From NCBI RefSeq assembly GCF_003790525.1, contig NZ_CP033635.1: a stretch of DNA of 64,000 bases; one strand, 5' to 3'. Positions 3,930 to 48,014 of this stretch are shown one piece after another. The notes beneath the pieces were generated by a model. The model saw nothing but the letters and a program-made list of their open reading frames with translations, had not been told where the DNA came from and made no database searches. Positions within the stretch are counted from its first letter, which is position 1, and each line of letters starts with the position of its first letter. The stretch is from Escherichia coli (lineage in GTDB: Bacteria; Pseudomonadota; Gammaproteobacteria; Enterobacterales; Enterobacteriaceae). The translations under genes and the position numbers were made by a program.

Positions 3930-5423
3930 TCAGGCGCTTTTACCGTTGTTAAAAATAGCCAGTTCATCCCAGATGGCGTCAATATGCGCGACAACATCCG
4001 GATCTTTTTTGATGGGACGTCCCCATTCACGCTGGGTTTCCCCTGGCCATTTATTCGTGGCATCCAGCCCCATTTTTGAACCCAGCCCGGACACAGGCGA
4101 GGCAAAATCCAGATAATCAATAGGCGTATTTTCGACCAACACCGTGTCCCGCGCCGGGTCCATACGGGTGGTAATCGCCCAAATCACATCGTTCCAGTCG
4201 CGTGCGTTGACGTCATCATCGCAAACGATCACAAATTTAGTGTACATAAACTGGCGTAAGAACGACCAGACGCCCATCATGACGCGCTTCGCGTGTCCGG
4301 CGTACTGTTTTTTGATCGTCACTACCGCCAGGCGATAAGAGCAGCCTTCCGGCGGCAGGTAAAAATCGACAATTTCCGGGAACTGTTTTTGCAGAATCGG
4401 CACAAACACTTCGTTCAGTGCGACACCCAGCACCGCAGGTTCATCCGGCGGACGCCCGGTATAGGTGGAATGATAAATCGCATCTTCACGCTGGGTAATA
4501 TGCGTCACGGTAAATACCGGGAAACTATCGACTTCGTTATAGTAACCGGTGTGGTCGCCATACGGCCCTTCCGGCGCAGTTTCGCCTTGTTCGATATACC
4601 CTTCCAGCACAATCTCCGCACTGGCGGGCACTTCGAGATCATTGGAAATACACTTTACTACTTCGGTTTTGGTGCCGCGTAGCAATCCGGCAAACGCATA
4701 CTCTGAAAGCGTATCCGGAACGGGGGTGACTGCACCGAGAATCGTGGCGGGATCGGCACCCAGCGCCACAGAAACCGGGAAACGTTCGCCCGGATGCGCC
4801 ACACACCACTCCTGATAATCCAGCGCGCCGCCGCGATGCGACAGCCAGCGCATAATCAGTTTGTTTTTACCAATCAGCTGCTGGCGATAAATGCCCAGAT
4901 TCTGCCGCTCTTTATGCGGGCCGCGCGTCACGGTCAGCCCCCAGGTAATCAGCGGCGCGGCATCTTCCGGCCAGCAGGTCATAATGGGAATGCGATTGAG
5001 ATCGACGTCATCGCCAGAGACGATTTTTTGTTGGCAAGGCGCACCACGCAGCCGCTTTGTCGGCATGTTCAATACTTGCTTAAACTGCGGCAGTTTATCA
5101 AACAGGTCGCGGAAACCTTTTGGCGGCTCCGGCTCTTTCAGAAACGCCAATAATTTACCAACTTCACGCAGCGCCGAAACATCTTCCTGCCCCATGCCCA
5201 TCGCCACGCGCTTTGGCGTACCGAACAGGTTGCACAGCACCGGCATTGAGTAGCCTTTAGGGTTTTCGAACAACAGCGCAGGCCCACCGGCACGCAAAGT
5301 GCGGTCAGCAATTTCAGTGATTTCCAGATGCGGATCCACCGGGAGCGTGATACGTTTTAGCTCACCCTGCTGTTCAAGCAGCGTCAAGAAGTCGCGTAAA
5401 TCGTTATATTTCATGGCGTCCAT
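3930..5423 (-). CDS. ubiD: 3-octaprenyl-4-hydroxybenzoate decarboxylase UbiD
   Basis: 497 aa [28 protein letters not shown]..., full-length UbiD. Confidence 0.95.
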
Positions 5424-5544
5424 TGTAGCCTCTTAATCTGCGCCCATTATACGGCGTTCATCTTTGCGATGCTGTAAATTTGTTAAATTAGCGTGAACTC
5501 TGACGGTATAACGCAAACCGGGGAATATAATTAACTTAGCGTAA

Positions 5545-6857
<1,313 letters not shown>

Positions 6858-7677: not shown

Positions 7678-8193
7678 TTACGGTTTATCACTCGACGAAG
7701 GGGAAGGTGCAGCGGTTTTCGGTTCAGCGTCCGCAGCAGGTTTTACCACCGGCTCTGGCGTGGTTTCTGGCTTCTGTTCCGGCGAACTGGCCTGCGTTTG
7801 TGCAGCGGCAGGCGTTACGCCTTCATGCGCAGCTTCATTGTCTTTCACCACCGGGTTATGGATGGTGTGCGCTTCATCGCTCGCCTTTTCAGGATCGTTT
7901 GCAACGTAGGAACGCTTCATCGACTCCGCGGCCTGGCGTAATTCATCCATCGACGCTTTCAGTTCGGGTGTCAGGTTAGTGAGGCTCGCCTTTTCAACCT
8001 TTTTCAGACTGTCCTGAAACTCCTGGAGTTTTAACTCCTGGGTCAGTTCGTTCTGCACCGTTGTCGCCAGTGAACGCAACGCGCGAATCCAGCCCGCGAC
8101 CGTTTTTACCGCCACAGGCAGTCGTTGCGGCCCCAGAACGACGAGGCCGATGATGAATACCAATAGCAGTTCGCTAAAACCGATATCAAACAC
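7678..8193 (-). CDS. tatB: Twin-arginine translocase subunit TatB
   Basis: 171 aa, [26 protein letters not shown]..., N-terminal TM helix plus amphipathic helix. Confidence 0.95.
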
Positions 8194-8196
8194 GGA

Positions 8197-8466
8197 TTAC
8201 ACCTGCTCTTTATCGTGGCGCTTCGCGTCTTGTGTTTTAGCCTGTTCCTGATTCGTATCCGCCTGCTTATCGGCGATAGTTTTCGCAGTAAAATCAGCAT
8301 CCTGACTGGTTTTATCCTGCTTTGGTTCATCATCGCTCATTGCTTTTTTAAAGCCTTTGATCGACGCACCAAGATCGGAACCGATGGAGCCGAGCTTTTT
8401 GGTGCCAAAAAGCAGTACAACGATGACGGCAATAATCAATAACTGCCAAATACTGATACCACCCAT
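8197..8466 (-). CDS. tatA: Twin-arginine translocase subunit TatA
   Basis: [29 protein letters not shown]...; start chosen at MGGIS rather than the longer six-frame ORF. Confidence 0.9.
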
Positions 8467-8544
8467 ACATGTTCCTCTGTGGTAGATGATGATTAAACAA
8501 GGCCGCATTATACGTTACACAGCCCGCCTTGAGCGATGAAAAAA

Positions 8545-10787
<2,243 letters not shown>

Positions 10788-41349: not shown

Positions 41350-42198
41350 ATGAACAACATATTAGGCTCATCAATTAATATGCCCTGTACACTTTTCGAA
41401 ACTATTACTTTATTCGATGATTTTTCTGCTGATGATATGCAGTATGGGGATATGGAAGAACAAGATTTTCTCTCACTCGGCTTAAGCGACATCTCTGCAA
41501 AAGTTGATCCTTACCGCCTCATTAAATACCATTTTCCTGGGCCGAATTCTACTTATGGTGCTTTTAGTGTTCCAACTTCTGGAACAAAAATATCACAAAG
41601 TGAATGTATTGATATTTTATTTGCAGAAATGAAAGATCTGGCAAAAATGTTTTCCTTTTTTGGACAATACAAAACACTCATCCAGGATCTGATTGATCAT
41701 TTTAGATATGGAAATGGCAACAGTTTCCATAGCCAGGAATTGAACTTATCTTTTCATGAACGAATAAACAAATATGATTATAATAGCCCAATACGTGTAA
41801 TCAAAGAATGTATCGAAAATGATATTTCTTCAACACCTACGATAGGATACCGGCCTCTTCTCCTACAAAAGATTAAGACCGAATTACTTTCATCAAGACT
41901 AAATAAATTCAATGATTTTAAAGATAATTTTAATGGCATGGGAATCAGCATTCATGATATCTCAGCTCAAAAAATATCTCTTTTAAATTTTCAAAAATAT
42001 CCTATGGGCTGGAGCGCTACCATTCATTTCATAGCACAAGACCACTTTGGTTTGGATGTGACTGATATAAAAAACAAGATTTACAACAAGTATAGATTTT
42101 TTCGCATATGGTTCTTTTTACAACGGCATAAAGACTTTGCTTTCAAACCTTTTTTCACCAATTTTAACACTATCGAAAGAATCGAAAATTATCTATGA
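41350..42198 (+). CDS. Hypothetical protein, 282 aa, acidic, no signal peptide or TM segment; function unknown (toxin/effector-like candidate)
   Basis: Long ORF in AT-rich DNA with strong RBS (agaaaggagaatataaATG); stop overlaps the next start (ATGA); I recognise no family motif with confidence. Confidence 0.55.
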   Translation: MNNILGSSINMPCTLFETITLFDDFSADDMQYGDMEEQDFLSLGLSDISAKVDPYRLIKYHFPGPNSTYGAFSVPTSGTKISQSECIDILFAEMKDLAKMFSFFGQYKTLIQDLIDHFRYGNGNSFHSQELNLSFHERINKYDYNSPIRVIKECIENDISSTPTIGYRPLLLQKIKTELLSSRLNKFNDFKDNFNGMGISIHDISAQKISLLNFQKYPMGWSATIHFIAQDHFGLDVTDIKNKIYNKYRFFRIWFFLQRHKDFAFKPFFTNFNTIERIENYL

Positions 42199-42692
42199 AA
42201 AGAAAACTCCAGAAAATTATATTATATTTATTTCTTCTATGCTGCATCTATAATTTATGGACATTGCGTCCTGTACAGATTTTGTATACATACTCTGATG
42301 CTGGCAATTCAGTCTTTCTGGTCGTTGATCATCTGCCATGGACTGACAGCGATAAAATAAATTGGTATCTGAAGCATCAGAATGAAATTAAAAATCAACA
42401 CCCCCTACCAGAAGGTAGTTGGCATACCTGGTATGTTATTGATATCGGTAATGGCTTCACTGACTATAAAAAATATATCGAAGGGCCGTATGAAGATCTC
42501 TACTGTTTCCCGACGATTAAGAGCAATGATAATTGCATCGTAAAAAACTATTTAATGGTTATTAATGAATATCCTTACCGTAATACTCATTTTTTTATTG
42601 CTGATAACAATGAGTATCAACTAACCCAGGAAAATAAGATAGAGCGAGTGTTCAACCCGCATGACTTTGAAAAAGACAATTTTCAGCAATAA
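42195..42692 (+). CDS. Hypothetical membrane-anchored protein, 165 aa, single N-terminal TM helix plus Trp/Tyr-rich soluble domain (immunity-like candidate)
   Basis: N-terminal KIILYLFLLCCIYNLWTL hydrophobic segment; ATGA coupling to the upstream ORF. Confidence 0.55.
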   Translation: MKRKLQKIILYLFLLCCIYNLWTLRPVQILYTYSDAGNSVFLVVDHLPWTDSDKINWYLKHQNEIKNQHPLPEGSWHTWYVIDIGNGFTDYKKYIEGPYEDLYCFPTIKSNDNCIVKNYLMVINEYPYRNTHFFIADNNEYQLTQENKIERVFNPHDFEKDNFQQ

Positions 42693-44047: not shown

Positions 44048-44812
44048 ATGGCGCATCGGCTACTCATTGGTAAAGGAATGATCACCTTGAATCTCAAACG
44101 GATTTTTCTCACCTTCACCTTACTTCCCTTGTTTGCTGTTGCCGCTGATGATTGCGCACTCTCAGATCCGACGCTGACCGTACAGGCGTATACCGTTAAT
44201 CCTCAAACAGAGCGGGTGAAAATGTACTGGCAAAAAGCCAATGGCGAAGCGTGGGGAACGTTACATGCTCTGCTGGCGGATATGAATAGTCAGGGTCAGG
44301 TGCAGATGGCGATGAACGGCGGCATCTATGATGAAAGCTATGCGCCGCTCGGTTTGTACATCGAAAACGGTCAGCAGAAGGTGGCGTTAAATCTCGCTTC
44401 AGGTGAAGGGAATTTCTTTATTCGTCCTGGCGGCGTGTTTTATGTCGCGGGAGATAAAGTCGGCATCGTTCGTCTGGATGCCTTTAAAACCAGTAAAGAG
44501 ATTCAGTTTGCAGTGCAGTCAGGGCCAATGTTATTAGAAAACGGCGTAATTAATCCACGCATTCACCCGAATGTTGCCTCGCGTAAAATTCGTAACGGTG
44601 TAGGGATTAATAAACAAGGGAACGCCGTGTTTTTGTTGAGCCAGCAGGCGACAAATTTTTATGATTTTGCCTGCTATGCCAAAGCGAAACTGAACGTTGA
44701 GCAGCTGCTTTATCTTGATGGCACAATTTCACATATGTATATGAAAGGCTGGGCAATCCCGTGGCAACACTATCCTTTTGTTACCATGATTTCCGTCGAG
44801 TGGAAAGGTTAA
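44048..44812 (+). CDS. yigE: DUF2233-family periplasmic protein YigE
   Basis: 254 aa with N-terminal signal-like segment; matches my recollection of YigE. Confidence 0.8.
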   Translation: MAHRLLIGKGMITLNLKRIFLTFTLLPLFAVAADDCALSDPTLTVQAYTVNPQTERVKMYWQKANGEAWGTLHALLADMNSQGQVQMAMNGGIYDESYAPLGLYIENGQQKVALNLASGEGNFFIRPGGVFYVAGDKVGIVRLDAFKTSKEIQFAVQSGPMLLENGVINPRIHPNVASRKIRNGVGINKQGNAVFLLSQQATNFYDFACYAKAKLNVEQLLYLDGTISHMYMKGWAIPWQHYPFVTMISVEWKG

Positions 44813-44894
44813 GCATTGTACACTCGAGGAGGCCAGACAAACTGGGACTGGCTACACAGCTGGAAAATCATCAGATAAATGAAGGGAAACAAAA

Positions 44895-45797
44895 ATGAAA
44901 AAAAGGCTCGCAACGTTATTTTTATTAACGTGTCTGGGATCATCATCCGCCTATGCGGATAACGCTTTGATTTTACAAACTGATTTTAGCCTGAAAGATG
45001 GTGCCGTCTCGGCGATGAAAGGGGTCGCATTCGGCGTTGACCATAATCTTAAAATCTTTGATTTAACACACGAAATTCCACCGTATAACATCTGGGAAGG
45101 CGCTTATCGCCTGTATCAGACTGCCAGTTACTGGCCGCAAGGTTCGGTGTTTGTTAGCGTGGTCGATCCGGGCGTAGGCACTGACCGTAAATCGGTAGTG
45201 CTGAAAACCAAAAACGGTCAATACTTCGTTTCACCAGATAACGGTACGCTCACTTTGGTGGCACAAACTCTGGGTATTGATAGCGTCCGAGAAATCGACG
45301 AAAAAGCTAACCGCCTGAAAGGTTCTGAAAAGTCATATACCTTCCACGGTCGTGACGTGTATGCCTACACCGGTGCGCGTCTGGCTTCCGGGGCGATTAC
45401 GTTCGAACAGGTGGGGCCAGAGCTTCCTGCAAAAGTTGTCGAACTTTCTTATCAGAAAGCAAAAGCAACAAAAGGTGAAGTGAAGGGCAATATCCCGATT
45501 CTCGATATTCAGTACGGCAACGTCTGGAGCAATATCAGCGACGAGTTGCTGAATCAGGCAGGAATCAAACTCAACGACACGTTGTGTGTGACCATTTCCG
45601 AAGGTTCCCAGCAAAAATACGCAGGGAAAATGCCATATGTCGCAAGCTTCGGCGATGTGCCGGAAGGCCAGCCGATGGTGTATCTGAACAGCTTATTGAA
45701 TGTTTCCGTGGCGCTGAATATGGATAATTTTGCGCAGAAACATCAGGTTGCGTCTGGTGCTGACTGGAATATTGATGTGAAGAAGTGCGCTAAGTAA
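44895..45797 (+). CDS. SAM hydrolase / SAM-hydroxide adenosyltransferase-like protein (DUF62 fold) with N-terminal signal peptide
   Basis: Signal peptide MKKRLATLFLLTCLGSSSAYA; VFVSVVDPGVGTDR matches the DPGVGT motif of the fluorinase/chlorinase/SAM-hydrolase family. Confidence 0.6.
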   Translation: MKKRLATLFLLTCLGSSSAYADNALILQTDFSLKDGAVSAMKGVAFGVDHNLKIFDLTHEIPPYNIWEGAYRLYQTASYWPQGSVFVSVVDPGVGTDRKSVVLKTKNGQYFVSPDNGTLTLVAQTLGIDSVREIDEKANRLKGSEKSYTFHGRDVYAYTGARLASGAITFEQVGPELPAKVVELSYQKAKATKGEVKGNIPILDIQYGNVWSNISDELLNQAGIKLNDTLCVTISEGSQQKYAGKMPYVASFGDVPEGQPMVYLNSLLNVSVALNMDNFAQKHQVASGADWNIDVKKCAK

Positions 45798-45851
45798 GGT
45801 GCTGATGCCGAATGCGGTGTGGCGCACCGCATCCTGCAACGGAGTTGTAAA

Positions 45852-48014
45852 TTACACCGTCTCCAGTCGGGCATAAGCCGCCACCAGCCATTTAATACCC
45901 TGGCCCTGGAATGCCACCTGCAAACGGCTATGCTCGCCGCTGCCTTCCATATTGACGATGGTGCCTTCACCAAACTTAGCGTGGCGTACGCGCTGGCCGA
46001 GCTTGTAGCCGCTGTCGTTCTCGACCATCGGCGTACCCATCCGTTGATGGCTGACCGGGCGGCTTACCGTAGCGCGCAGGCGCACCTCTTCCACACACTC
46101 TTCCGGCAACTCACCGATAAAGCGCGACGGGCGATGGTAAACCTCTTTGCCATACAGACGGCGAGTTTCCGCGTAGGTCAGCGTCAGTTTCTGCATCGCG
46201 CGGGTTACGCCAACGTAGGCCAGACGGCGTTCTTCTTCCAGACGTCCGCCTTCATCCAGCGACATCTGGCTTGGGAACATGCCCTCTTCCATACCAACGA
46301 TAAACACCTGCGGGAACTCCAGGCCTTTCGCCGAGTGTAGCGTCATCAACTGCACCGCGTCCTGCCAGGTATCCGCCTGCCCCTCGCCCGCTTCCAGCGC
46401 CGCATGGGAGAGGAATGCCTGCAGCGGCATTAAATCTTCGTCTTCTTCGTTGTAGCTGAACTGGCGCGTTGCCGTCACCAGTTCCTCCAGGTTTTCGATA
46501 CGCGTCTGACCTTTTTCGCCCTTCTCCTGCTCGTACATGGTGCGCAAGCCGGAGTCTTTAATTACCCGGTCAGTCTGTACATGCAGCGGCATATCGGCAG
46601 TTTCCTGCGCTAAGGCGTCGATCAGCTCCATAAACCGCTGTAAGGCACTGGCAGCACGTCCGGCGAGGGCTTTTTCCTGCAACAGTTCACGACATGCCTG
46701 CCAGAGTGTTAACTGGCGATCACGCGATGTCTGACGTACCACGTCCAGCGTCCGGTCACCAATACCCCGCGTTGGTGTATTCACCACGCGCTCAAAGGCC
46801 GCGTCGTCATTACGGTTGGCAATCAGGCGCAGATACGAGAGCGCATCTTTGATTTCCTGGCGTTCGAAGAATCGCATCCCGCCGTAAATACGGTACGGCA
46901 TACTTGCCTGTAACAGTGCTTCTTCCAGCACACGCGACTGGGCGTTGCTGCGGTAGAGAATGGCGCACTCGGCAAGCGCCCCGCCGTTGTCCTGCCAGGT
47001 TTTGATACGGTTAACCACAAAACGCGCTTCATCGAGTTCGTTAAAAGCGCAATAGAGGGAAATAGGCTCACCATCCGCGCCATCGGTCCACAGTTTTTTA
47101 CCCAAACGCCCGTTGTTGTTTTCAATCAGGGCGTTCGCGGCGCTCAGAATATTGCTGGTAGAGCGGTAGTTCTGCTCCAGACGGATAGTTTCAGCACCGG
47201 GGAAATCATTGAGGAAACGCTGAATATTCTCCACCTGCGCTCCGCGCCAGCCGTAGATTGACTGATCGTCATCGCCAACGATCATCACTTTGCCGGTATC
47301 GCCCGCCAGCAGGCGGATCCACGCATACTGAATGTTGTTGGTATCCTGGAATTCGTCCACCAGGATATTGGTAAACCGTTCGCGATAGTGCTGAAGGATA
47401 TGCGGCTTGTTAAGCCACAACTCGTGAGCACGTAGCAGCAGCTCGGCGAAGTCCACCAGCCCCGCGCGGTCACACGCTTCCTGATACGCCTGATACACCT
47501 TCTGCCAGGTCTGCTCCACCGGATTACCGTAGCTTTGAATATGATGTGGACGCAGGCCTTCATCTTTCTGGCTGTTGATGTACCACATTGCCTGGCGCGG
47601 CGGCCACTGCTTCTCGTCGAGGTTCATCGCCTTGATTAGGCGTTTGAGCAGGCGTAGCTGGTCCTCGCTGTCGAGGATCTGAAAATCCTGCGGCAGATTG
47701 GCGTCCATATGGTGCGCACGCAGCAGACGGTGCGCCAGCCCGTGGAAGGTGCCGACCCACATGCCGCCCTGGCTGGTGCCCATCAGCTGCCCGATACGAT
47801 GACGCATCTCCGCCGCCGCTTTGTTGGTAAACGTTACCGCCATAATCGAGTATGGCGAGCAGTTTTCCACGCTCATCAGCCAGGCGATACGATGCACCAG
47901 TACGCGCGTCTTACCACTGCCCGCGCCCGCCAGCACCAGAAGGTTGCTGCGTGGCGCGGCCACCGCTTCGCGCTGTTTGTCATTAAGGCTGTCGAGCAGG
48001 TAAGAAACGTCCAT
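45852..48014 (-). CDS. uvrD: DNA helicase II UvrD
   Basis: MDVSYLLDSLNDKQREAVAAPRSNLLVLAGAGSGKTRVLVHRIAWL...; 720 aa from that start (the six-frame ORF runs 62 codons further upstream without a stop). Confidence 0.95.
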   Translation of the reverse strand: MDVSYLLDSLNDKQREAVAAPRSNLLVLAGAGSGKTRVLVHRIAWLMSVENCSPYSIMAVTFTNKAAAEMRHRIGQLMGTSQGGMWVGTFHGLAHRLLRAHHMDANLPQDFQILDSEDQLRLLKRLIKAMNLDEKQWPPRQAMWYINSQKDEGLRPHHIQSYGNPVEQTWQKVYQAYQEACDRAGLVDFAELLLRAHELWLNKPHILQHYRERFTNILVDEFQDTNNIQYAWIRLLAGDTGKVMIVGDDDQSIYGWRGAQVENIQRFLNDFPGAETIRLEQNYRSTSNILSAANALIENNNGRLGKKLWTDGADGEPISLYCAFNELDEARFVVNRIKTWQDNGGALAECAILYRSNAQSRVLEEALLQASMPYRIYGGMRFFERQEIKDALSYLRLIANRNDDAAFERVVNTPTRGIGDRTLDVVRQTSRDRQLTLWQACRELLQEKALAGRAASALQRFMELIDALAQETADMPLHVQTDRVIKDSGLRTMYEQEKGEKGQTRIENLEELVTATRQFSYNEEDEDLMPLQAFLSHAALEAGEGQADTWQDAVQLMTLHSAKGLEFPQVFIVGMEEGMFPSQMSLDEGGRLEEERRLAYVGVTRAMQKLTLTYAETRRLYGKEVYHRPSRFIGELPEECVEEVRLRATVSRPVSHQRMGTPMVENDSGYKLGQRVRHAKFGEGTIVNMEGSGEHSRLQVAFQGQGIKWLVAAYARLETV

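Follow-up and report, generated by a model that had tools for sequence, protein, structure and literature searches.

The enzymes that hydrolyse S-adenosyl-L-methionine (SAM) and those that use it for halogenation belong to one protein family, DUF62, and the split between hydrolase and halogenase is set by a few residues of the pocket (PMC4859513). In the hydrolases these residues form an Asp-Arg-His triad (D68-R75-H127 in the numbering of PH0463), and PH0463-type enzymes that carry the triad show no halogenation; in the halogenases the halide pocket includes T80 and S158 of the fluorinase FlA, or Y70 and G131 of SalL (PMC4859513). The equivalents of fluorinase D16 and N215, together with the motifs PxNGL and IDxxFGN, are ligand residues and motifs of the family as a whole (PMC4859513). 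The cytoplasmic members prefer the inactive (R)-sulfonium epimer of SAM, and their proposed role is to rid the cofactor pool of it (bioRxiv 10.1101/2025.08.29.672840).

Here a member of this family is described that is encoded in a 64,000-nucleotide stretch of Escherichia coli DNA (contig NZ_CP033635.1 of assembly GCF_003790525.1, hereafter the window), at positions 44895..45797 on the plus strand between yigE and uvrD. The protein is predicted to be of the hydrolase type and to carry a Sec signal peptide, and the reading favoured here, with confidence a little above even, is that it is a Sec-exported, extracytoplasmic SAM or (R)-SAM hydrolase with a role in salvage. Membership of the family is well supported; the substrate, the products, the trimer and the salvage role are what we infer.

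Family membership and active site

An open reading frame (ORF) that starts with ATG and comprises 300 codons plus a stop occupies exactly 44895..45797 (+). Its product is WP_121831989.1 by exact-sequence look-up, and the Prokaryotic Genome Annotation Pipeline (PGAP) names the gene as a member of the SAM hydroxide adenosyltransferase family (2413 genomes); together with the Pfam matches these define a complete coding sequence. The sequence-only reading had placed a gene here and, from a DPGVGT motif, had assigned it to the DUF62/SAM-hydrolase family. Both the ORF coordinates and the RefSeq layout agree with that position, and the assignment was borne out by the match to PF01887 and by the motif itself (residues 91-96), which survives alignment along with the catalytic triad.

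Both domain hidden Markov models of the family were matched over their full length. The N-terminal domain, PF01887 (SAM_HAT_N), covers residues 26-174 (44970..45416, +; E = 4.9e-53, model positions 2-145 of 145) and is also covered by alignments to proteins of the PDB, while the C-terminal beta domain, PF20257 (SAM_HAT_C), covers residues 198-291 (45486..45767, +; E = 3.9e-18, model positions 1-83 of 84). A sequence search of the PDB gave the Thermotoga maritima DUF62 protein 2zbu as the best match (1.3e-43), with the chlorinases ClA1 and SalL at about 1e-35 and further matches to PH0463, MJ1651 (now deposited as an (R)-SAM hydrolase) and the fluorinases. An AlphaFold2 monomer model built from a 48-sequence alignment had a predicted local distance difference test score (pLDDT) of 93.9, with low confidence for residues 1-22 only (pLDDT 54-55 over residues 1-20). 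When this model was compared with known structures by Foldseek, the template-modelling (TM) scores, normalised to the target, were 0.92 to 2zbu, 0.91 to SalL and 0.87-0.88 to PH0463, and a fluorinase was also matched.

The catalytic residues of the hydrolases are present. D91, R98 and H151 (codons 45165..45167, 45186..45188 and 45345..45347, all +) align exactly onto D68, R75 and H127 of PH0463 in the HMMER coordinates against 1wu8_A, D68 being part of the water-activating triad. Among 69 sequences of the exported clade described below, D91 and R98 were kept in all 69 and H151 in 66. Alignment to SalL placed Tyr, Thr and Tyr at the D91, R98 and H151 positions, and Val89 opposite SalL Y70. The match to the PH0463 triad, taken with the differing residues of SalL, argues that the protein is of the hydrolase type and not of the halogenase type.

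Residues expected to bind the substrate are present as well. The PF01887 domain holds D30 (ribose ligand), D35, D91-PGVGT-x-R98, P114-DNG and F150-H151-GRD, and the PF20257 domain holds L-D204-IQ-Y-G-N209, corresponding to the IDxxFGN motif, and YLN-S266. D30 and N209 are the equivalents of fluorinase D16 and N215, and each of D30, D35, D204, N209 and S266 was kept in 68 or 69 of the 69 exported-clade sequences. These five we take to correspond to fluorinase D16, D21, D210, N215 and S269, positions that bind the ribose, the adenine and the amino-acid moiety of SAM in fluorinase and SalL; of the five, D16 and N215 are described in PMC4859513. The two motifs occur as conservative variants, P114-D-N-G-T having T for the L of PxNGL and L-D204-I-Q-Y-G-N209 having Y for F. 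The conserved triad and ligand positions point to SAM, or a very close analogue, as the probable substrate. A non-canonical substrate, which the sequence-only reading had raised, appears less likely, given that the positions assigned to contacts with the amino-acid moiety of SAM are kept.

The protein is also set apart from all of its characterised relatives. It did not reach the NCBIfam equivalog models for (R)-SAM hydrolases (131.5 against a cut-off of 350 bits for NF058624 and 116.9 against 470 for NF053629) or for the fluorinase (83.9 against 400 bits for TIGR04507). Because these scores are far below the cut-offs, it is classed as a member of the family and not as an orthologue of any characterised enzyme. 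Clade-specific residues were found at Y207 (F in the cytoplasmic members), L267, A70 and P201. In addition, Cys231 (45585..45587, +) and Cys298 (45786..45788, +) were co-conserved in all proteobacterial exported members and absent in those of the Bacteroidota and Verrucomicrobiota and in the cytoplasmic members, which suggests that the pair is a candidate periplasmic disulfide.

With the characterised (R)-SAM hydrolases the E. coli protein shares both Pfam domains, the fold (TM 0.87-0.92), the D-R-H triad, the PxNG and DxxF/YGN motifs and the ribose and amino-acid ligands; it differs in having a Sec signal peptide and in falling in a separate clade, whereas the characterised hydrolases are all cytoplasmic and lack an N-terminal extension. 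With the halogenases SalL, ClA1/ClA2 and FlA it shares the fold, the SAM-binding scaffold and, presumably, SN2 displacement of methionine at C5'. Unlike them, it has the hydrolase triad in place of the halide-pocket residues (T80/S158 of FlA, Y70 of SalL), has no biosynthetic cluster, and carries an export signal where the halogenases are cytoplasmic.

Signal peptide and the exported clade

Residues 1-21 (44895..44957, +), MKKRLATLFLLTCLGSSSAYA, form a predicted signal peptide, with predicted cleavage by signal peptidase I (SPase I) after AYA and before DN. This call was made by a rule-based check of the n-, h- and c-regions and of the -3/-1 rule, combined with conservation in homologues and proteomics of the Helicobacter pylori orthologue. 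The n-region is MKKR (+3), the 11-residue h-region is LATLFLLTCLG (mean Kyte-Doolittle value 2.2), and the c-region is SSSAYA, which has A at both -3 and -1 and precedes Asp22. All the marks of Sec export with SPase I processing are in place: a positively charged n-region, a hydrophobic stretch within the usual 7-15 residues, and a polar c-region whose -3 and -1 residues are small. The homologues in the PDB all begin to align at residues 24-28, and residues 1-23 are therefore an extension. This is also the low-pLDDT part of the model. Between the E. coli and H. pylori copies the ratio of non-synonymous to synonymous substitution rates (dN/dS) was 0.41 in the signal region and 0.042 in the mature part, an approximately ten-fold faster rate that is the usual behaviour of signal peptides. 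Processing as a lipoprotein by signal peptidase II was considered and rejected: LLT-C13, with T at -1, breaks the lipobox [LVI][ASTVI][GAS]C, and Cys13 is not conserved, since H. acinonychis and some alleles of H. pylori lack it.

The H. pylori orthologue is HP0709 (jhp0648; UniProt O25413), a 'conserved hypothetical protein' of 300 residues. In an exoproteome study of H. pylori 26695, culture supernatants taken from 12 to 48 h were filtered and ultracentrifuged to strip vesicles (PMC4773364). The spectral counts of HP0709 over this series were 0, 1, 1, 6 and 17 in the supernatant. The soluble cell fraction gave 0, 1, 0, 1 and 0 and the membranes gave 2, 1, 3, 5 and 3, and the supernatant enrichment at 48 h was log2 5.1 with p = 1.4e-5 (PMC4773364 Table S2). 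The column layout of that table was checked on SecA and on HP0785, which is annotated as secreted. Because the counts are low, these data are supportive and not conclusive. HP0709 was also listed in an outer-membrane vesicle (OMV) proteome, which lists ribosomal proteins as well (PMC8756444), and it is seroreactive in patients and part of a serological panel (PMC11394471).

The claim of the sequence-only reading that the protein has a Sec signal peptide, which would place it outside the cytoplasm, is supported by the n/h/c and -3/-1 rules and by conservation in the clade, and the enrichment of HP0709 in the supernatant is in line with it. Export is well supported overall; for E. coli itself, export is what we infer.

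The signal-like segment extends far beyond these two species. A scan of one genome per GTDB species recovered 80 loci at 55-98% identity, spanning the Gamma- and Betaproteobacteria, Desulfobacterales, Bacteroidota, Verrucomicrobiota, Planctomycetota, Synergistota, Tissierellia, Fusobacteriota and Thermotogota, so that the exported homologues with at least 55% identity cover at least eight phyla. A basic and then hydrophobic segment preceded the 'ALVxQTDFG' start of the domain in every locus with a readable N-terminus; two of the ORFs were truncated at an internal Met and the upstream starts of a few were over-extended by the ORF rule. In a second sample, comprising the 78 full-length 50%-identity cluster representatives among the best 150 hits, a signal-like segment was present in 49 (4 of them with a lipobox), and 28 started directly at the domain like the cytoplasmic enzymes. 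A neighbor-joining tree, computed with no support values, clustered the exported proteins together and apart from the cytoplasmic representatives. Export is shared by an entire, widespread clade, and the E. coli gene is no exception within it.

The exported clade is about 30-45% identical to the characterised cytoplasmic members. Identities to the E. coli protein were 71-76% in Aeromonas, 71-75% in metagenome-assembled genomes of Neisseriales and Burkholderiales, 73% in Haemophilus paracuniculus and Edwardsiella piscicida, 69% in Thorsellia and 65% in Bibersteinia. A search of the literature found no published paper on exported DUF62 proteins.

Proposed function and competing explanations

According to the favoured reading, the protein would be a soluble enzyme that is exported by Sec, processed by SPase I to a mature form of about 30 kDa, and either periplasmic or released. 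By homology it would be a homotrimer with active sites at the subunit interfaces. Asp91, Arg98 and His151 would activate a water molecule, which would attack an adenosyl-sulfonium substrate at C5' in an SN2 reaction. This substrate would most probably be SAM, including the inactive (R)-sulfonium epimer that arises from it spontaneously, and it would be split into adenosine and L-methionine. Cleansing of the cofactor pool cannot apply to an exported enzyme, because such an enzyme works outside the inner membrane, and salvage is the simplest alternative. E. coli is not known to import SAM, whereas it takes up both adenosine and methionine by dedicated systems; exogenous SAM would be converted, outside the inner membrane, into two nutrients with transporters. 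H. pylori, which must obtain purines and methionine from its surroundings, would profit in particular from salvage of this kind.

Extracytoplasmic salvage enzymes occur in other families, for example the periplasmic UshA, CpdB and AphA of E. coli and Bgp, the surface or secreted methylthioadenosine/S-adenosylhomocysteine nucleosidase of Borrelia burgdorferi. The likeness to these is one of function only, in that a compound that cannot be imported is turned into a nucleoside or base that can, to the benefit of purine-dependent pathogens; the folds and the chemistry are unrelated. No exported enzyme that acts on SAM itself is known to have been described, and none appeared in the literature searched. 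A gene named salL in H. pylori SS1 is assumed here to be the orthologue of HP0709. In an SS1 biofilm this 'salL, adenosyl-chloride synthase' was up 2.87-fold together with the methionine permease gene metI, up 2.18-fold (PMC6212823). The joint rise is a weak hint of methionine salvage.

Several observations weigh against the favoured reading. The protein is far below the equivalog cut-offs for (R)-SAM hydrolases. No partner such as a transporter, nucleosidase or regulator was conserved across genera in the 80 loci and the annotated contexts, and no SAM or purine riboswitch or other relevant RNA was found by Rfam in the window region or in 11 homologous loci. The HP0709 spectral counts are low, with significant enrichment only at 48 h, when some lysis occurs. 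Literature searches found no export data for the E. coli protein and no activity data for any exported member. Finally, 55% of E. coli genomes do without the gene.

A wider version of the salvage reading is put forward only tentatively, and it is rather more likely to be wrong than right. It proposes that the secreted or periplasmic SAM hydrolases form a broad clade (Proteobacteria, Bacteroidota, Verrucomicrobiota, Synergistota, Tissierellia, Fusobacteriota, Thermotogota and Planctomycetota) that lets bacteria feed on extracellular SAM or (R)-SAM as a source of purine and methionine at once. One of its lineages would have crossed between an enterobacterium resembling Escherichia and the forebear of H. 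pylori and H. acinonychis, and would there have become a released enzyme of a gastric pathogen dependent on purines and methionine, with a variant associated with gastric cancer risk.

The most serious competitor, although unlikely, is an enzyme that is exported and active and whose physiological substrate is not SAM, serving detoxification or niche-specific catabolism. Candidate substrates would be decarboxylated SAM, 5'-halo-5'-deoxyadenosines, antibiotics of the 5'-O-sulfamoyl-adenosine type, or some further natural product with an adenosyl-sulfonium group. Both the synthesis and the use of SAM take place in the cytoplasm, so that its presence in the periplasm is not obvious; the clade branches apart from the characterised cytoplasmic enzymes, below the equivalog cut-offs and with its own residues at Y207, L267, A70 and P201; and its patchy, accessory spread (44% of E. 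coli; Aeromonas, Pasteurellaceae, Edwardsiella) fits a niche function. However, D35, D204 and S266, which in the mapping given above would hold the alpha-amino and carboxylate part of methionine, are near-invariant and speak for a substrate with an amino-acid tail, and no biosynthetic or resistance cluster surrounded the gene in any genus examined.

It is also conceivable, at a low level of probability, that the N-terminus is not a cleaved signal. Translation could start internally, for example at the TTG of codon 25, to give an ordinary cytoplasmic (R)-SAM repair hydrolase, or the hydrophobic segment could be an uncleaved anchor. A start at residue 25 would give MILQTDF..., which resembles the cytoplasmic homologues, and HP0709 also gave a few spectra in the membrane fraction (PMC4773364). 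Yet a good Shine-Dalgarno sequence precedes the ATG and none precedes codon 25; the n/h/c layout is kept across phyla although the sequence is not conserved, which would be unexpected for untranslated DNA; and the Cys pair is limited to the exported clade. HP0709 was enriched in the OMV-depleted supernatant and not in the soluble cell fraction, and an anchored enzyme would in any case still sit outside the cytoplasm.

Slightly less probable again is a protein that has lost, or never had, catalysis in vivo. It could bind adenosine or SAM in the periplasm, as a sensor or solute-binding protein, or be a surface or virulence-associated antigen. The characterised DUF62 enzymes turn over slowly, which could be counted in its favour. 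So could the seroreactivity of HP0709 (PMC11394471) and its single-nucleotide polymorphism (SNP) associated with gastric cancer in a genome-wide association study (GWAS; PMC6090961). A full triad and a full set of ligand contacts under strong purifying selection are, on the contrary, the pattern of an enzyme, and no transporter or sensor adjoined the gene in any genus examined.

A SAM-dependent chlorinase making 5'-chloro-5'-deoxyadenosine in the chloride-rich stomach or periplasm, as might be supposed from SalL and ClA1 ranking near the top of the PDB comparisons (E near 1e-35, TM near 0.91) and from the name 'adenosyl-chloride synthase' in two papers (PMC6090961, PMC6212823), is hardly credible given that the D-R-H triad stands where SalL has Tyr, Thr and Tyr, that Val89 lies opposite SalL Tyr70, that the fluorinase equivalog scored 83.9 against 400 bits, that PH0463-type enzymes with this triad do not halogenate (PMC4859513), and that the neighbourhood holds no downstream chloro-adenosine pathway.

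Distribution, the Helicobacter copy and gene neighbourhood

The gene was complete, and at the yigE-uvrD site, in 2413 of 5426 complete E. coli genomes (44%). A K-12-type junction, in which yigE and uvrD are 146 bp apart with a repetitive extragenic palindromic (REP)-like element between them, was contiguous in 3007 genomes, and the two states together account for 5420 of the 5426. The sequence-only reading knew of no such gene at this position in K-12, and rightly: blastn of the MG1655 spacer (positions 5147-5292 of the K-12 comparison stretch) found no remnant of the gene in this 146-bp, REP-containing sequence. The gene is thus a clean presence/absence polymorphism. Plasmid carriage was considered and rejected, there being no true plasmid hits (the 4.9-Mb 'plasmids' are chromosomes), and no mobility genes were found in the flanks of the gene.

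Alleles within E. coli differed by up to 5-10% at the nucleotide level. Divergence specific to the gene was rejected as an explanation, and the allelic divergence reflects regional history, because the flanking yigE and uvrD are similarly divergent in the same strains. E. coli HS-02 (NZ_CP172818.1, stretch 4915-5772) has a frameshifted copy with internal stops at the same site, at 80.8% identity. A diverged allele was rejected here as well; the neighbouring yigF is also broken, and sequencing or assembly error is for this reason the likely explanation of the pseudogene.

A second replacement polymorphism was observed a few kb away. At 41350-42692 (+) a pair of overlapping, low-GC (33-34%) genes, encoding a YPO3983-family protein (282 residues) and a DUF943 protein (165 residues), fills the rarD-corA interval, in which K-12 has yigG-yigF. 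In HS-02 yigG/yigF occur together with the SAM-hydrolase-family gene, which shows that linkage between the two polymorphisms is not strict.

In a search of a 5.8-billion-sequence collection, the next-best proteins after those of Escherichia and Shigella were from H. pylori and H. acinonychis, at 89-90% identity over all 300 residues, and all other taxa were at most 76% identical to the E. coli protein. The Helicobacter matches came from complete genomes of 1.6-1.7 Mb, and one cluster of them held 2579 sequences. At the DNA level the E. coli and H. pylori copies were 84% identical by blastn, and the identity was confined to 44869-45803 of the window, that is, to the ORF with 26 bp upstream and 6 bp downstream (H. 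pylori CP079344.1, stretch 7981-8909). A Shine-Dalgarno-like GAAGGGA read from the sequence 7 nt 5' of the ATG (44881..44887, +) falls within this upstream segment, the only upstream DNA common to the H. pylori copy.

The neighbor-joining tree placed Helicobacter as sister to Escherichia within a gamma/beta-proteobacterial group, and the H. pylori gene has 43% GC against 38% in its surroundings. Judged from these comparisons, the most parsimonious history would be that a donor resembling Escherichia passed the gene to the ancestor shared by H. pylori and H. acinonychis. dN/dS between the two copies was 0.058 at a dS of 0.90; the transfer is old enough for that dS, and both copies have been under strong purifying selection since. 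No paper reporting a transfer between Escherichia and Helicobacter was found in the literature search.

HP0709 resembles the E. coli protein in length (300 residues), in sequence (90% amino acid and 84% nucleotide identity), in the layout of its signal peptide and in the Cys pair. It differs in genomic context, lying between HP0708 and hom locus A, and in being apparently widespread in H. pylori where the E. coli gene is accessory. A non-synonymous SNP in HP0709 (position 145, D/N) was associated with gastric cancer in a bacterial GWAS (PMC6090961). The annotations of HP0709 conflict between papers, which mention methylation, branched-chain amino-acid synthesis and chlorinase. On the active-site alignment, both the UniProt-derived 'adenosyl-chloride synthase' used in PMC6090961 and PMC6212823 and the older 'acetolactate synthase' are mis-annotations. 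No biochemistry of HP0709 was found in the literature.

The gene is flanked by yigE (44048..44812, +), of the DUF2233 or phosphodiester glycosidase family, and by uvrD (45852..48014, -), whose 3' end faces it. The RefSeq annotation of a 99.9%-identical strain gives the order rarD, YPO3983-family gene, DUF943 gene, corA, ysgD, yigE, the gene, uvrD, yigB and xerC. GC content was 47.4% in the gene (50.8% at third codon positions), 46.9% in yigE, 57.5% in uvrD and 51.9% in the whole window. Between the stops of the gene and of uvrD lies a REP-like imperfect palindrome (45803..45845) with the core ATGCGGTG..CACCGCAT, which had only short matches to the REP-containing spacer of K-12 (blastn).

The gap between yigE and the gene is 82 bp, on the same strand, and it contained no promoter-like or terminator-like site, the promoter-like hits of the region being not above those of shuffled sequences. 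The gene may therefore be co-transcribed with yigE. The YigE ORF starts MAHRLLIGKGMITLNLKRIFLTFTLLPLFAVAADD, which includes a signal-like segment, and had no NCBIfam hit; RefSeq places it in the phosphodiester glycosidase family. Two neighbouring, co-oriented genes thus each appear to code for an exported enzyme. They need not form an operon, because each gene occurs without the other: yigE is present without the gene in K-12, and the gene is present without an adjacent yigE in H. pylori, Edwardsiella, Haemophilus, Chitinophaga and Tissierella.

Conservation of neighbours was assessed by all-against-all clustering of the flanking ORFs of the 80 loci and by reading Pfam-annotated contexts for these same five genera. 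DEAD-box helicase and LysR genes recurred and were rejected as coincidence, both being very common families found at varying positions. The gene appears to be self-contained, although in E. coli it may be transcribed by read-through from yigE. In Aeromonas, and in that genus only, a gene for an exported RNase T2/RNase I-like protein lies about 0.9 kb downstream (stretch 7766-8455), which could be a thematic link to periplasmic nucleoside salvage. The Edwardsiella homologue (CP002154.1, stretch 5001-5900; 73%) lies between a LysE/RhtB-type exporter gene and recQ, near pldA and rarD, in the chromosomal neighbourhood that the gene occupies in E. coli and in another intergenic slot. This position hints either at an old enterobacterial residence of the gene in the region or at repeated insertion.

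The fold, the family, the probable chemistry and the PGAP family name were known already; the exported multi-phylum clade, the 44% polymorphism in E. coli and the standing of HP0709 as a recent relative of the E. coli gene were found to be undescribed. The 90% identity between the E. coli and H. pylori proteins marks an unusually clear gene transfer between human-associated bacteria of different phyla, and HP0709 is a released, immunogenic protein and a gastric-cancer GWAS hit without an assigned function. Presence or absence of the gene in E. coli offers natural, isogenic-like contrasts. SAM has been regarded as a cofactor found only inside cells, and the DUF62 enzymes characterised to date are all cytoplasmic. 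An exported clade with an intact active site would imply that SAM-like adenosyl-sulfonium compounds are an extracellular resource or hazard for bacteria in gut, gastric, aquatic and soil habitats.

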